A DNA stretch of 64,000 nt from Vampirovibrionaceae bacterium NZW_1234 (lineage in GTDB: Bacteria; Cyanobacteriota; Vampirovibrionia; Vampirovibrionales; JAGQHJ01): contig JBGUGD010000004.1 in NCBI GenBank assembly GCA_041697335.1, positions 64,001 to 128,000 on the forward strand, given 5' to 3'. Numbering within the stretch: the stretch's first letter is position 1; every line of letters begins with the position of its first letter. Below are positions 4,531-10,044 of the stretch, piece by piece. A program made the translations under genes and the position numbers. The notes under the pieces were generated by a model that worked only from the letters and a program-made list of their open reading frames with translations, made no database searches and had not been told where the DNA came from.

Positions 4531-5106
4531 GTGTTGAAACCAGTCAAGGCCAAGCAATCGGGATTTACGTATTTTGAGGCCATTATTGCCTTAATTTTCA
4601 TTGGTATTGTGGCCATGTTGACTTTGCCTGGCATGATTTTCACCTCATCTAATAGCACTGCGCTTTATCGCACCAAGAACATGGCTGCTCAAATCCAGGA
4701 GGTCTCTATGGGGGGACGTTTTGGCTGGTCCATTATGGAAAAGCTCAAGTATGTGAATAAAATTTCTTCTGGCAATGTCAATATCAGCCTCAAGCCCTGT
4801 ACCGGGCAACAGGCGAGTACCTGTTGTACCACCATGAATCCCTGTTATCGTTTCTCGGACGGGGGGATTTTGCGCTATGATGGCTACAGTAACTCTGCCG
4901 GGGGGCCTGGTGGGATAGTATATGTCAATACAATGTCCTATTCTTACGATCCCGATGGGGCTGGTGTCATCAAGCCGGCAGAGTTGGTGTATCTTCACGC
5001 TACAGGCCGAATTGTATCTCGAGAAGTCTATTGGAAAGATGTCATCGGATCGACCAATGCAGGGTATAAAGATCCAGCCTATTTGAAGCCTTGGACCAAA
5101 TACTAG
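4531..5106 (+). CDS. type IV pilin / pseudopilin-like protein
   Basis: Class III signal KQSG|FTYFE followed by a hydrophobic helix; YDPDG and DPAY C-terminal motifs. Confidence 0.8.
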   Translation: MLKPVKAKQSGFTYFEAIIALIFIGIVAMLTLPGMIFTSSNSTALYRTKNMAAQIQEVSMGGRFGWSIMEKLKYVNKISSGNVNISLKPCTGQQASTCCTTMNPCYRFSDGGILRYDGYSNSAGGPGGIVYVNTMSYSYDPDGAGVIKPAELVYLHATGRIVSREVYWKDVIGSTNAGYKDPAYLKPWTKY

Positions 5107-5351: not shown

Positions 5352-6833
5352 ATGTCCAGCACAGTGGCCCAAAAAACGGTTTTTAAGAATCTGATTGATG
5401 GTGTTTGGGTGTCCAAGGACACCACATTTGCGGTTGAGAATCCCGCAACCAAAGAAATTATTGCTGAGGTTCCCCGGTGTACCAAAGAAGATGTGGATCA
5501 GGCGGTTCGAGGCGCTCGTCTGGCCTTTGAAAGCGGCAAATGGTCTAAAATGTCCGCCAGTGAACGGGGGCGTTTGCTGTTTAAAACGGCTGAACTGATT
5601 CGTGCCCATGCCGATGAACTGGCTGAATTGGAAACCCGCTCTAACGGCAAACCCATTCGGGAGACCCGATTCGTGGATGTGGTCCTGGCAGCCGATTGTT
5701 TTGAGTACTATGCCGGTATGGCCAACAAGATCCACGGGGAAACCATTCCGGCCCCCGGAAACACGCTGAACTATACACTGCGTGAGCCGCTAGGGGTAGT
5801 GGGTCAAATTATCCCCTGGAATTTCCCGTTGCTGATGGCTGCCTGGAAAATTGCCCCTGCCCTGGCGGCAGGCAACACCGTGGTGTTAAAGCCAGCCTCG
5901 GTAACGCCCTTAAGTGCCCTTCGTTTAGGTGAACTCTTGATGGAAGCCGGTGTACCCGGTGGCGTGGTTAATATTATCACTGGCCCCGGTGCCGAAATCG
6001 GTGAGTATCTGGCCAATCATCCTGGGGTAGATAAGGTCGCCTTCACGGGTGAAACCGAAACGGGTCGCCTGATTATGCAAGCGGCCTCCAAGACCATTAA
6101 AAACGTGTCTTTGGAGTTGGGCGGCAAGTCCCCGAACATCGTCTTTGCCGATGCAGATTTTGATAAGGCCATTGAAGGATGTTTGTTCGCCATTTACTTT
6201 AACCAGGGTCAGGTCTGCTGTGCCGGTAGCCGTCTCTTTGTGGAAGACAGCATCTACGACAAATTTGTAGAGACCTTTGTTCAGCGGGCCAAGCAAATCC
6301 GGGTTGGTAACCCCTTGGAGACCGATACCCAAATGGGTGCTTTGGTCAGTAAGGACCAAATGGAAAAAGTCTTGGCATACATTGAAAAAGGTCAAAAAGA
6401 AGGCGCAAAACTGCTGACCGGTGGCAAACAGCGCACGGATCTGCCAGGCTACTTCATTGAGCCCACCGTCTTTGCGGAAGTCAAGAATGATATGTGCATT
6501 GCCAAAGAAGAGATCTTTGGACCTGTGGTCAGTATCATTCGCTTTAAAGGTGAAGAAGATGTGGTACGCCAAGCAAATGATACCATTTATGGCTTGGCTA
6601 GCGCTGTTTGGACCCGTGATCTGACCAAGGCTCACCGTGTTGCCCGGGCCATCCAGGCAGGAACCGTTTGGGTGAATTGTTACAACCAATTGCCCAACGA
6701 GTCTCCTTTCGGAGGCTACAAGCAGTCCGGCATTGGCCGTGAGTTGGGCATCCATGCGTTGGAGCTGTATACCCAGGTCAAAAACGTTTACGTGGATTTG
6801 AACGAAAAACCGATGAACTGGTACAAATCCTAG
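5352..6833 (+). CDS. NAD(P)-dependent aldehyde dehydrogenase
   Basis: PWNFP, LELGGKSP, catalytic QVCCAG, EEIFGP, PFGGYKQSG; AAGGAGG RBS. Confidence 0.97.
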   Translation: MSSTVAQKTVFKNLIDGVWVSKDTTFAVENPATKEIIAEVPRCTKEDVDQAVRGARLAFESGKWSKMSASERGRLLFKTAELIRAHADELAELETRSNGKPIRETRFVDVVLAADCFEYYAGMANKIHGETIPAPGNTLNYTLREPLGVVGQIIPWNFPLLMAAWKIAPALAAGNTVVLKPASVTPLSALRLGELLMEAGVPGGVVNIITGPGAEIGEYLANHPGVDKVAFTGETETGRLIMQAASKTIKNVSLELGGKSPNIVFADADFDKAIEGCLFAIYFNQGQVCCAGSRLFVEDSIYDKFVETFVQRAKQIRVGNPLETDTQMGALVSKDQMEKVLAYIEKGQKEGAKLLTGGKQRTDLPGYFIEPTVFAEVKNDMCIAKEEIFGPVVSIIRFKGEEDVVRQANDTIYGLASAVWTRDLTKAHRVARAIQAGTVWVNCYNQLPNESPFGGYKQSGIGRELGIHALELYTQVKNVYVDLNEKPMNWYKS

Positions 6834-6871
6834 GATAGGCTTTTTTCCAAGTCACGTTCTAACGTAAATTA

Positions 6872-6901
6872 AAAGAGGCGTTGAAAAACGCCTCTTTCTT
6901 T
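6872..6901. terminator. bidirectional intrinsic terminator
   Basis: AAAGAGGCGTT-GAAA-AACGCCTCTTT between convergent genes. Confidence 0.85.
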
Positions 6902-6937
6902 GTCTGCTGTATGATTGATGGTAGAGAAAATAACGTC

Positions 6938-7120
6938 TCAGGACGCCCAGAAGTTATCCCAATCTTCAATATCGCTCGTATCAAAGTGGCTGCGAGTCAG
7001 AGCACGGAGCTGTTCCTGTTCTCGATGCCGGTTCTTTATCGAGGGTGGCTTTTTGCCATGGGGCTTTCGATCGTCTTCTCGGCTGTGGTTGGTTTTCGGT
7101 TTGGTGAGTTGTTTTTGCAT
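6938..7120 (-). CDS. small hypothetical protein (60 aa)
   Basis: GGAGG 4 nt before ATG; ends just before the terminator; basic N-terminus and acidic/aromatic C-terminus. Confidence 0.6.
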   Translation of the reverse strand: MQKQLTKPKTNHSREDDRKPHGKKPPSIKNRHREQEQLRALTRSHFDTSDIEDWDNFWAS

Positions 7121-7421
7121 GGGTCCTCCAGAATTTGTACCCCCCTGAGCTCACTGTGAATTCTACATGGATTTGAAATAAGGGCCATCACCTAAGTGGT
7201 GGGATTCCAGTCAAGGTCCTGGATGAATGGATTTCCCAATATGAAACATGTTTTTATCCAGAGGGAGCCCGACTAACAAGGGTGCTAATAGAATCCCGAG
7301 AGACGTGAAAAAAACAGATAGTAATTCAAATTAAAGATGAAATAAGTGCTGATATTTAATATTTGGTTACAATTTGTGGCCTTGCCTAGCAACTTTTTTT
7401 TTGAGAAGGTTTAATCTGAGT

Positions 7422-7490
7422 ATGAAAGACATTGTTCTAAACGTCGCTCAAGCGAACCATCATCATCAGCACCATCCCATAAGGAGATGA
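7422..7490 (+). CDS. His-rich leader peptide MKDIVLNVAQANHHHQHHPIRR
   Basis: 22-codon ORF with 5 His in 6 codons, embedded in attenuator hairpins. Confidence 0.65.
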   Translation: MKDIVLNVAQANHHHQHHPIRR

Positions 7491-7575
7491 TGGTCGCATC
7501 ACGTGCTGTTTAACAAGATTTGCTGAAGCCACTGTCATCTCCCTTCCGGAACCGACAGTGGTTTCTTCTTTGCTT
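7452..7575 (+). promoter_or_regulatory. ribosome-mediated transcription attenuator
   Basis: 1:2 stem 7456-7464/7486-7494; antiterminator 7483-7494/7531-7542; terminator 7525-7536/7554-7565 plus TTCTTT. Confidence 0.65.
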
Positions 7576-7624
7576 GAATTTTTCCAAGGTTACCCCCGTT
7601 CTATCTACTCTGAGACCCTGATTT

Positions 7625-9316
7625 ATGACCCTTATCACTCCGAGCCAACGCCCCATAAATCTTCAAAGCCAGTCGCTACGATTTGGCAGTGGGATGGCTG
7701 CGCCTGCCAAAAAGGGGTCTTCCGTGGGGCAATTCCTGAAAGAGCTGCACAGCAATCGAGCCACCGGGATGATCATTGAGGACATCTTTGGCTTTGTCAT
7801 TTTCCGTACTCTATTAGACCTGTATCGCCAATATTTCTTCGAGAAAACAGAAGATAATCAGCCTAAGCTCAATTTGCCTGCGGCAAAAGAGCGTTTGTAT
7901 CGGGAATTTGCATCTATTTTTACGGATAACTTTATGGGTGGGATCTTGGCTTATACCATTGGTGCCGGTGTTACACGCCTAGGATCCCGTAATGTCGCTA
8001 ACCAGTTTATTTCCCACGAAACCCTGGAACTCTTCCAAAAAGTGGTTGGCAACGGCAAGACGATCCGGTCTAGCGGTGACTTCATTCGCCAGCTGTGTAC
8101 CCACTTATATGGCCAGGGAGCCACAAGTGCTGATGTGGCGGCCATGATGAACAAGGTCATTTATCCTCAAAGTAAAGCCGATTTAACGAAGAAAGCCATG
8201 GAGATTGCTAAAAAGCTGGGCTTGAAGACCATGGATATCCCCGGCAAGCCGTATACCGTCAACGGGATCATGGACGATGCCTCGTTGTTTATCAAACAGA
8301 TGGGCAAGAATAAGTCTGTCTGGGCAAAATCTGGCTGGGGAGTTGAGGCCAAATCGGTTCTTGCCAATACAGCAAGGTTAAACAAATGGCGAATTCCCAT
8401 CAGTATTGGGGCCGCGATGGCGCTGACTTTTGCTGTGCCCTATGTCATTCGGGCCATGACTCGAAAGGAATATGGGATTGACAGTTATCCTGGAGAGATG
8501 GGGTTACGTCAACTCAAGAAAGTAGATAATCAGGCCCAAGAGAAGAAGACCTGGTTACAGAATGCCTTTCCTTATCTCAATGAAAGCCTGAAGAATGGCA
8601 ATCCGGTTCCCTTGTTACTCTCGTTGGTTCCTTTGCCATTTGCGGCTGGGCTCATTAATTCAACCAACCTTTCGAATGGAGTGTGGAATAAGGTATTAAA
8701 CCTGCCTGGAAAAGGTTTTCTGGAACGTCTGACCAAGATGTTTCAGTTTGGCAAGGGCTTTCCCTTTACTACGCAACAACAAATGGCGTCATGCTTTGCG
8801 TTTCTGATAGCCTCTCGTCTGATGACCTCGCGAAGTGACATTGAATTTCGGGAGCGAATGGTAGACTCCTTCCTGGGCTGGTCCGTGTGGATTCTGGCAA
8901 CGCCGATGCTCAAGCGAATGTTTGCCCAATGGTGGGATAAAACCAACAAGACACAGCTCACCAAGACGGTTGGCAAACAGGTGATGCTCCGGACCGAAGC
9001 CGAGATTGCCATGTTGCCCAAAGCCATTCGAGGCGTCACCTCTCGTATCTTTACCCGGATGAACTGGGTGACCTTAGGAATTACTGTGGCCATGCTTGGG
9101 ATTGTAGAGCCATTGATCGGCATTAAGTGGACAGAATGGCAGGCCAAGCGCGACAAAAAGAAGCAGGCCGCTCAAGCTGAGGCAAGCCAAAAGATGCAAC
9201 CAGCGATTGATTTGGAGATTTTAATGAAGCAATTGCAAGCTCGCCAGAAGCTGCAGACCAGTCTTGTTGGCAATCGCTTCTTCGCTGCTGGCAATACTGC
9301 ATCAAATCGGGCGTAA
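7625..9316 (+). CDS. uncharacterised multi-pass membrane protein
   Basis: 563-aa ORF with several hydrophobic segments; similar 'ERLYREFASIF' and 'EFRERMVDSF' halves hint at internal duplication. Confidence 0.8.
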   Translation: MTLITPSQRPINLQSQSLRFGSGMAAPAKKGSSVGQFLKELHSNRATGMIIEDIFGFVIFRTLLDLYRQYFFEKTEDNQPKLNLPAAKERLYREFASIFTDNFMGGILAYTIGAGVTRLGSRNVANQFISHETLELFQKVVGNGKTIRSSGDFIRQLCTHLYGQGATSADVAAMMNKVIYPQSKADLTKKAMEIAKKLGLKTMDIPGKPYTVNGIMDDASLFIKQMGKNKSVWAKSGWGVEAKSVLANTARLNKWRIPISIGAAMALTFAVPYVIRAMTRKEYGIDSYPGEMGLRQLKKVDNQAQEKKTWLQNAFPYLNESLKNGNPVPLLLSLVPLPFAAGLINSTNLSNGVWNKVLNLPGKGFLERLTKMFQFGKGFPFTTQQQMASCFAFLIASRLMTSRSDIEFRERMVDSFLGWSVWILATPMLKRMFAQWWDKTNKTQLTKTVGKQVMLRTEAEIAMLPKAIRGVTSRIFTRMNWVTLGITVAMLGIVEPLIGIKWTEWQAKRDKKKQAAQAEASQKMQPAIDLEILMKQLQARQKLQTSLVGNRFFAAGNTASNRA

Positions 9317-9507
9317 TCGGGCATATGGTAAAATCAACATGGGTGATGGGGATGACTCCAAAGGACCCTGCTTCATTGCAGCATAAGAACGCAGCAAATT
9401 ATTAACAATTGTGAAGAACGTCCCGGAAAGCTATCACAAAACCGGCTTGAGGGGAGTTTATGAACTATCTTTAGAACACAGAACGATGTTGAGGAGGAAA
9501 CCCGTTT

Positions 9508-10044
9508 ATGGTGCTTCAGGCGCAAATTGCGCAACAGTTGGAGCAAGGTCTGGTAAAGCATGGCCCCGAAGTGATGGCTAAGCTTGGCCTGTCTCGTTTC
9601 ATTCCGGCAGCTGTCTTAACGACGTTTTTGACGACCATCGCCACCCCCATGGTGTTGGATCTATTTCACAAGCTCTTTAAAGTTGTCTCTTCGATTGTGA
9701 CCTATCCCTTTCGGGCCTTTAGTAACAAGGTTGAAGAGACAATAAAGAAACGGGAAAAGCCAACGAAACCCGTGGAAGATGATACAGACATTGGCGATGT
9801 GGAAACACCCGCCGGTGGTAAGTTGGATGTTCTGGATGGGAAGCTTGATGAGATCGCCAACAAGTTGGGACGTTTAAATACCATTTCCAAACGTCTGGAT
9901 GCCTTAGAGAAACGGGTTAAAGCCGTTGAAGGACTCGAGGCTCCCGAGCAGCAAGGCAAGGTCAAAAAGAGTGCCCACCCGGATGTGGTGCGGCGGGCCA
10001 TTGCCGATCCTGCGCGTCGGGATCGCCTGTTCTCCAACAACTAG
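9508..10044 (+). CDS. hypothetical protein, N-terminal hydrophobic helix plus coiled coil
   Basis: GAGGAGG RBS; heptad LDGKLDEIANKLGRL...LDALEKRV. Confidence 0.75.
   Translation: MVLQAQIAQQLEQGLVKHGPEVMAKLGLSRFIPAAVLTTFLTTIATPMVLDLFHKLFKVVSSIVTYPFRAFSNKVEETIKKREKPTKPVEDDTDIGDVETPAGGKLDVLDGKLDEIANKLGRLNTISKRLDALEKRVKAVEGLEAPEQQGKVKKSAHPDVVRRAIADPARRDRLFSNN

Follow-up and report, generated by a model that had tools for sequence, protein, structure and literature searches.

Why should a short open reading frame (ORF) with a run of histidine codons, followed by alternative hairpins of the kind known from the histidine biosynthesis operon, stand in front of a gene for a membrane protein that belongs to no recognized family? 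The locus that raises this question lies in a 64,000-nucleotide stretch of the genome of Vampirovibrionaceae bacterium NZW_1234 (the window, to which positions refer unless another contig is named), and comprises a leader ORF and the gene for a 563-residue membrane protein downstream of it. Our analysis suggests that the leader is a leader-peptide attenuator reading the supply of histidine and that the protein under its control serves histidine uptake, a joint reading to which we assign a probability of roughly 0.6. Its components are not equally firm. Conservation and covariation of the leader make a real histidine-sensing attenuator very likely, a role of the protein in histidine acquisition is probable in view of the genomic context, and the odds that the protein is itself the importer appear about even.

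The histidine codons of the leader ORF occupy five of six consecutive positions (7458-7475), and segment 1 of the hairpin system lies inside this stretch (Table 1). The leader stop codon, TGA (7488-7490), falls within segment 2, of which the portion GGAGATGATGGT (7483-7494) is able to pair alternatively with ACTGTCATCTCC (7531-7542), and TTCTTTGC is found directly 3' of the terminator arm GACAGTGGTTTC. The minimum free energy (MFE) structure predicted by RNAfold for 7400-7630 (-61.5 kcal/mol) contains both the 1:2 hairpin and the terminator, and none of 200 shuffled versions of the region, which average -48.75 kcal/mol, folds equally well (z = -2.85). The individual helices have predicted energies of -12.6 (1:2), -23.4 (2:3) and -21.2 kcal/mol (3:4); a simple terminator scan reports just the inner seven-pair part of the last of these (7548-7565). 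The sequence-only reading from which this work started had described the leader ORF with its histidine codons and these three pairings, and every one of its coordinates holds, the former on the evidence of the sequence and its translation and the latter with the 1:2 hairpin and the terminator recovered in the MFE structure. Constrained folding points in the same direction: when the transcript stops short of segment 4 and a ribosome occupies the histidine codons, the 2:3 helix forms (-23.4 kcal/mol), and with a ribosome at the stop codon a structure of just -2.4 kcal/mol is left and segment 3 is free for the terminator. The arrangement is also singular in its genome. Eight short ORFs across the 3.7-Mb assembly satisfy a criterion of at least five histidines in eight codons, and in a separate genome-wide scan the ORF at 7422-7490 was the only His-rich one to be followed by a terminator and a long ORF. 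Another short ORF rich in histidine (C10, near 6222) was rejected, being antisense within a long ORF taken for pyruvate kinase.

These structures suggest a course of events in which scarcity of His-tRNA would stall the ribosome at 7458-7475, so that segment 2 (7482-7501) would stay unpaired and join segment 3 (7525-7542) ahead of the synthesis of segment 4; with the 2:3 helix formed, the polymerase would continue into the gene at 7625. An ample supply of histidine would instead let the ribosome reach the stop codon inside segment 2 and cover that segment, whereupon segment 4 would engage segment 3 in the terminator hairpin, ending transcription at about 7566-7572.

Table 1. Coordinates of the leader, its hairpin segments, the regulated gene and the sensors of related genes
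Feature	Position	Strand	Description	Basis
Candidate promoter region	7382-7415	+	TTGCCT 7382-7387, AGCAAC box, -10-like TTTAAT 7410-7415	Sequence
Leader ORF	7422-7490	+	22 codons, MKDIVLNVAQANHHHQHHPIRR, then stop	Sequence and translation
Segment 1	7456-7464	+	ACCATCATC; pairs with GATGATGGT (7486-7494)	MFE structure
Regulatory His codons	7458-7475	+	CAT CAT CAT (CAG) CAC CAT; predicted stall site	Sequence
Segment 2	7482-7501	+	AGGAGATGATGGTCGCATCA; pairs with the His codons (1:2) or with segment 3 (antiterminator)	
Segment 3	7525-7542	+	Terminator 5' arm GAAGCCACTGTC (7525-7536) plus 7537-7542; alternative partner of segment 2	
Segment 4	7554-7575	+	GACAGTGGTTTC (7554-7565) and U-rich tail TTCTTTGCTT; predicted intrinsic terminator with segment 3	
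Regulated gene	7625-9316	+	563-residue membrane protein outside known families	
Lysine riboswitch RF00168	L046:686-879 = G000 contig C34, ~120285-120478 (outside the window)			
Met-codon leader (L047)	G000 contig C29, 117394-117477		MKFTVINVTAMMMCPML..., 14-base-pair terminator, then 429-residue RFG protein	
Tandem Arg-codon leaders (L048, L056)	G000 contig C37, ~101127-101308	-	..QQQQRRRR.. and terminators, then 502-residue membrane protein	

A survey of 61 related genomes returned 30 loci, of which 29 were analysed, one weak locus (L030) falling below the tblastn threshold and being dropped; counting the window's own genome, homologues of the 563-residue protein occur in 32 of the 61. A His-rich short ORF precedes the gene in 17 of the 27 loci with upstream DNA and is not present in the other 10, two further loci lacking upstream DNA. 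The 17 conserved leader ORFs contain 5-11 histidine codons and lie 100-250 nucleotides 5' of the gene, and a second homologue in one genome (G001, locus L043) provides an eighteenth His-rich leader. A metagenome-assembled genome of Vampirovibrio chlorellavorus (L026/L042) carries the system as well. Outside the histidine run the 17 leader peptides diverge from each other. Immediately after the run, the nucleotides (GATGATGGCTTAYGG or GGAGATGAYGG) are kept and are read, depending on the locus, as RMMAYG, DDGLW or RR-stop. This retention of the segment-2 nucleotides in spite of their being read in three frames indicates that the constraint is on the RNA and not on the peptide.

Covariation of the paired columns was assessed in an alignment of the 17 leaders (A3) with 500 shuffles and slid controls. 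The terminator columns are 86.7% paired, as against 36-51% in the slid controls, with both sides changed in 8 of 13 pairs, and no shuffle matched either the paired fraction or the covariation score. The antiterminator (2:3) columns are paired to an even greater extent (94.7%; slid controls 18-42%), with both sides changed in 4 of 9 pairs, involving 14 cells of the alignment, and again none of the 500 shuffles reached the score. The nature of these changes is illustrated by one set of partners that reads GGCTTACGG/CCGTAAGCC in most loci of family f3, GGCTTGCGG/CCGCAAGCC in locus L018 and GATGATGG/CTGTCATC in the window. For the 1:2 helix the paired fraction is 71.4%, versus 21-43% in slid controls, and the register of this helix differs between two groups of loci. 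The proposal that the locus follows the hisL-type 1:2, 2:3 and 3:4 logic is hence supported by comparisons over all 17 loci, in which the histidine tract, the terminator and the antiterminator are conserved and the latter two covary.

The connection to histidine is further suggested by the distribution of the biosynthetic genes. In the window genome (94.75% complete), hisD (PF00815), hisG (PF01634) and IGPD/hisB (PF00475) were not found by searches that recovered each of them in 14 of 14 controls. V. chlorellavorus is reported to make just 15 amino acids, histidine being excluded (Soo et al. 2015, PMC4451040). Across the 61 genomes of the survey, hisD was found in none of the 4 from the window's family, in all 19 from family f2 and in 12 of 25 from family f3. 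Among leader-bearing genomes it was not found in 14 of 18, and it was found in each of the 9 genomes in which the homologue examined is leaderless, counts that represent an association between the leader and hisD absence rather than a test of it. A quick maximum-likelihood tree of 36 proteins places all 18 leader-controlled proteins in a single clade of 22 (approximate likelihood-ratio test, aLRT, 90). The four leaderless members of this clade include L019 and L017, which form sister pairs with L018 and L022, respectively; the two members of each pair differ in both leader and hisD, L018 and L022 being the ones that bear the leader in genomes without hisD.

The amino acid composition of the proteins follows the same division. 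Leader-controlled proteins contain on average 0.75% histidine, as compared to 2.36% in leaderless homologues, 3.15% in the lysine-riboswitch paralogues described below, and 2.48% in ORFs of at least 300 residues of the window genome; the window protein itself has 3 histidines in 563 residues. The four leader-bearing proteins from hisD-positive genomes, with 1.0-2.6% histidine, lie in the upper half of the group, in which those of L010 and L020 are the richest. Such a low histidine content would allow the protein to be made during the very starvation that is predicted to release its expression.

Further evidence regarding function comes from relatives of the protein that lie behind sensors of other amino acids. 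The sole close paralogue in the window genome, a protein of 645 residues encoded on contig C34 (E 3.6e-37, 30% identity), has a lysine riboswitch (RF00168, 81.7 bits with a gathering score of 30) that ends 95 nucleotides before its start codon. The same riboswitch was detected on the gene's strand in all seven other loci of this subfamily that were fetched (L049-L055, 48.9-93.7 bits; eight of eight in total), and these seven span three families of the order. The lysine-riboswitch subfamily forms one clade, which is the sister group of the His-leader type (aLRT 100). Lysine riboswitches control genes for lysine synthesis and transport, and riboswitches have been used in comparative genomics to predict lysine transporters.

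Scanning the genome for short ORFs that contain a single-amino-acid run and are followed by a terminator and then a long ORF produced 17 candidates, the credible ones being the His leader, two tandem Arg leaders and one Met leader. Profile comparisons with hhalign showed that the Met-leader family aligns with the C-terminal half of the 563-residue family (probability 96.8%, E 2.7e-10, 242 columns, alignment A4 260-520), and that the Arg-leader family aligns with its N-terminal half (95.3%, E 2.4e-8, 202 columns, A4 72-297). Members of the Met-leader family are also poor in the amino acid of their leader, with 0.7-1.1% methionine in 8 of 10 as against 2.56%. On the strength of these sequence comparisons we recognize a Vampirovibrionales-specific superfamily, whose branches each lie behind a predicted sensor of a different amino acid. 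Given that four sensors precede four branches of the superfamily, we infer that its members perform amino-acid-specific tasks, of which uptake is the simplest. The earlier guess that the regulated protein might be an uptake or starvation-induced factor fits with the tracking of hisD absence, the low histidine content of the protein, and the Lys, Met and Arg sensors at the sister families.

What kind of protein, then, does the attenuator control? No Pfam model scores above its cut-off with the 563-residue protein, the best (13.7 bits against a required 27.4) being an unrelated domain; NCBIfam gives no match, and a profile of 43 sequences retrieved nothing among PDB sequences at E < 0.36. Nor is there a curated model match to the known amino-acid transporter families (APC/LeuT-fold, ABC permeases, YuiF and the like). 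Among 1.84 billion proteins, 113 cluster representatives match it at E <= 1e-3, and its ESM Atlas matches are confined to unnamed Melainabacteria clusters. The AlphaFold2 model derived from those 43 aligned sequences (predicted local distance difference test, pLDDT, 89; predicted template modelling score, pTM, 0.84) shows disordered residues 1-29 and an otherwise all-helical structure with about six hydrophobic helices and a soluble helical domain at about 120-250. With the whole model as the query, Foldseek found no PDB match at E <= 1e-3 (template modelling score about 0.1), and the highest Z among 48,161 chains compared with VIA-align was 6.7, limited to an 80-residue helical piece. The claim that the downstream protein has no recognized family thus survives searches of sequence, profile and predicted structure; we describe the modelled fold as unmatched in these whole-model searches and do not claim that it is new.

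The disordered, acid-poor N-terminus ends in R19-F20-G21 (window 7679-7687), with F20 invariant in alignment A1. The RFG motif is also seen in the Met-leader protein (RPRFGG) and at an internal site of the Arg-leader protein (YPRFGG). Two seemingly related modules can be discerned in the 563-residue protein (alignments A4 and A6), one with the motif ..AAxERxxRE and a hydrophobic helix at about residue 86, and the other with ..EFRERxVDSxLGW and a helix at about 407. The Arg-leader family displays a similar motif twice, as GRERxIEEF and ExxIRESS. This repeated motif suggests an old internal duplication.

The 563-residue protein is most likely a histidine-specific importer, or a component of one, of a new type, as judged from the sensors of its superfamily. 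The most serious competitor of this reading accepts that the attenuator senses histidine, and assigns the protein a task other than import, such as that of a membrane protein for attack on or harvest of prey, a part of a peptide or protein uptake system, or a sensor. The dissimilarity of the protein to every transporter fold or family, its combination of about six hydrophobic helices with a large helical soluble domain, and its N-terminal RFG leader, which could be an export tag, would all be accommodated by such a role, as would the inclusion of an algal predator in the lineage (PMC4451040). However, the positioning of the branches behind sensors for four amino acids fits specific tasks better than a general attack programme, and the known association of lysine riboswitches with synthesis and transport genes points the same way. 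Hence we consider a non-importing role unlikely, while giving it more weight than the alternatives that follow.

A more radical alternative would dissociate the small ORF from the gene behind it: the ORF would be a gene in its own right, encoding a His-rich and perhaps metal-binding peptide and equipped with a separate terminator, or its nascent histidine tract would sense metal, and the downstream gene would have its own promoter. His-rich peptides can indeed bind metals, and in family f3 the motif CCAGAGGTTTTAACCACTACCATG, found between the terminator and the main ORF, resembles the motif GAGAAGGTTTAATCTGAGTATG that precedes the leader ATG in the window's family, and is a possible second start signal. 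Yet a plain terminator needs no antiterminator, whereas the 2:3 columns show 94.7% pairing together with compensatory changes, and the peptide that this alternative would have as the functional product is not conserved outside its histidine run, its 3' part being read in three frames. Metal sensing by the tract, which the sequence-only reading had also entertained, is disfavoured because the tracking of hisD absence by the leader, the specific depletion of histidine in the regulated protein, and the Lys, Met and Arg sensors of the sister genes are not expected under it; on the whole, this alternative appears very improbable. Least probable of all is histidine sparing, in which the leader would switch on a His-poor substitute for a His-richer paralogue with the same histidine-unrelated job, for although leader-controlled copies have 0.75% histidine versus 2.36% in leaderless ones and G001 has one copy of each type, the window genome is without a leaderless copy of the His type, its only close paralogue being that behind the lysine riboswitch, and any protein made during starvation is expected to contain little of the limiting amino acid.

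Several observations weigh against the reading of the locus as a histidine-sensing attenuator coupled to histidine uptake. At the level of the RNA, covariation in the 1:2 helix is not above that of shuffles (52 of 500); this is expected because one arm must encode histidine, which limits variation, and it leaves the 1:2 helix less well supported than the others. The window copy has a weak U tract (TTCTTTGCTT, with TTCTTTTTT in most relatives). The terminator is favoured at equilibrium in every masked state, and the switch must therefore be kinetic, as in the classical cases. Further, before segment 4 exists, the 2:3 helix (-23.4 kcal/mol) is more stable than the 1:2 helix (-12.6 kcal/mol), and consequently an untranslated transcript could read through. 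At the level of the genomes, hisD is present in four of those that bear the leader (G016, G018, G044 and G048), and the genomes compared are kin, so that their independence is exaggerated by the counts; several are also only 72-87% complete. As regards the proteins, the sensed amino acid is not depleted in the Lys family (5.8% lysine) or in the Arg family (4.4-7.3% arginine in 8 of 9), and, specifically against an importer, the 563-residue protein is unlike any known transporter and its hydrophobic helices number only about six.

Attenuation by a leader peptide is textbook material, known mainly from biosynthetic operons of Proteobacteria and a few Firmicutes. The present leader shares with hisL of the his operon in Escherichia coli and Salmonella (RF00514) a short ORF with tandem histidine codons, the alternative helices 2:3 and 3:4 together with a predicted 1:2 helix, an intrinsic terminator, and the expectation of read-through when His-tRNA is scarce. 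It differs in that its target is a single orphan membrane protein rather than a his biosynthesis operon, in a host, belonging to the Cyanobacteriota (Vampirovibrionales), in whose genome hisD, hisG and hisB were not found, and also in that its stop codon lies inside segment 2, it has no Shine-Dalgarno sequence, and a -10-like box 6 nucleotides before the ATG would make for a possibly leaderless mRNA. A cmscan of 6800-9500 against Rfam, at E values up to 10, did not list RF00514 among its matches and returned chance matches only; weak matches to small-RNA families at 6813-6915 arise because of the terminator of the upstream gene (6872-6897).

Histidine leaders have also been predicted in Firmicutes, namely in the Bacillus cereus group, Peptostreptococcaceae and Erysipelotrichales; they are described, from comparative genomics only, as independent of the proteobacterial motif, with 3-5 consecutive histidine codons, a terminator and an antiterminator, and as regulating his biosynthesis operons or a known ABC transporter (hisXYZ) in histidine prototrophs (PMC9413887). 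Unlike these, the leader in the window and its relatives precedes a target outside known families, mostly in genomes where hisD was not found. A comparison can also be drawn with transporter genes behind lysine riboswitches: the sister clade is preceded by RF00168 in eight of eight loci, and the same reasoning is applied as in the assignment of lysine transporters in other bacteria; the histidine sensor, by contrast, operates through ribosome stalling and not through a metabolite-binding RNA, and the regulated protein is unlike known lysine permeases. The Met and Arg leaders of the same genome likewise combine a short ORF containing a tract of a single amino acid, a terminator and a membrane protein that is a remote homologue, differing in the amino acid sensed and in that the homology spans one half of the protein in each case. 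In the literature library searched, nothing on this system was found for leader-peptide attenuation in Melainabacteria or for leader peptides or riboswitches in Vampirovibrio. The mechanism is classical, and it is the lineage, the target and the protein superfamily that are new.

The start signals of the leader have features of their own. The ORF is without a Shine-Dalgarno sequence, and the -10-like TTTAAT of the candidate promoter region ends 6 nucleotides ahead of its ATG; most rows of alignment A3 have a hexamer of this type (TTTAAT, TATAAT or CTTATA) 5-7 nucleotides 5' of the leader ATG, and from its position the mRNA may be leaderless or nearly so. About 22 nucleotides 5' of this hexamer, and about 45 nucleotides before the leader ATG (A3 columns 21-35; window 7382-7395), a box is kept that reads TTGGCAA in family f3 and TAGCAAC in the window's family. 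It is too distant to be a standard -35 element and its spacing is unlike that of a sigma-54 site; it could be a site for a regulator. A sigma-54 reading of the TTGGCAA box was rejected, as its spacing to a GC dinucleotide, judged by eye, is not maintained, and a sigma-70 consensus scan found no plus-strand promoter. The sequence GAGAAGGTTTAATCTGAGT-ATG before the window's leader (7400-7421) resembles CCAGAGGTTTTAACCACTACC-ATG and CTTGAGGTTTAATCCGGTACG-ATG, which in family f3 stand ahead of the main ORF; the loci with this motif between the terminator and that ORF are L006, L008, L011, L016 and L026. The motif may serve as a common start signal, in the form of a -10-like box for a leaderless mRNA or of a ribosome-binding element of unusual type. 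The pattern CAYCAYCAYCAYCAY, tried as a definition of a regulon, matched 59 of the 61 genomes in all frames and was discarded as too noisy.

Upstream of the leader lies an aldehyde dehydrogenase gene (5352-6833; Pfam Aldedh, E 2.5e-197), which is followed by a strong, GC-rich, two-way terminator of 11-12 base pairs at 6872-6897. Since that gene has a terminator of its own, the hairpins at 7525-7565 are not part of it. No conserved operon partners were found: the downstream 178-residue ORF (9508-10044) has a weak relative in locus L002 only, and the 364-residue ORF has none. A pilin-like ORF (4531-5106, N-terminus ..GFTYFEAIIALIFIG.., no Pfam match) is retained by the two closest relatives in the vicinity of the His-leader locus, with 31% identity in L002 and 27% in L003.

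The regulated protein is the more interesting part of the system; it belongs to an unnamed superfamily for which the regulation predicts amino-acid acquisition. We tentatively suggest, as a conjecture somewhat short of even odds, that this Vampirovibrionales superfamily of unseen fold acquires single amino acids, each branch being controlled by its own RNA sensor (the His, Met and Arg leaders and the lysine riboswitch), and that the RFG tag may deliver these proteins to the interface with the prey, where they would draw the lacking amino acid from the alga. Attenuation here operates, by the reading preferred above, in non-photosynthetic Cyanobacteriota, mostly in genomes in which hisD was not found, and controls a protein without a name in the databases. 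The sensors that stand before the branches of the superfamily give orphan proteins with a confident but unmatched structural model a testable function, namely amino-acid-specific acquisition, and an auxotrophic predator may thereby tune what is taken from its prey.

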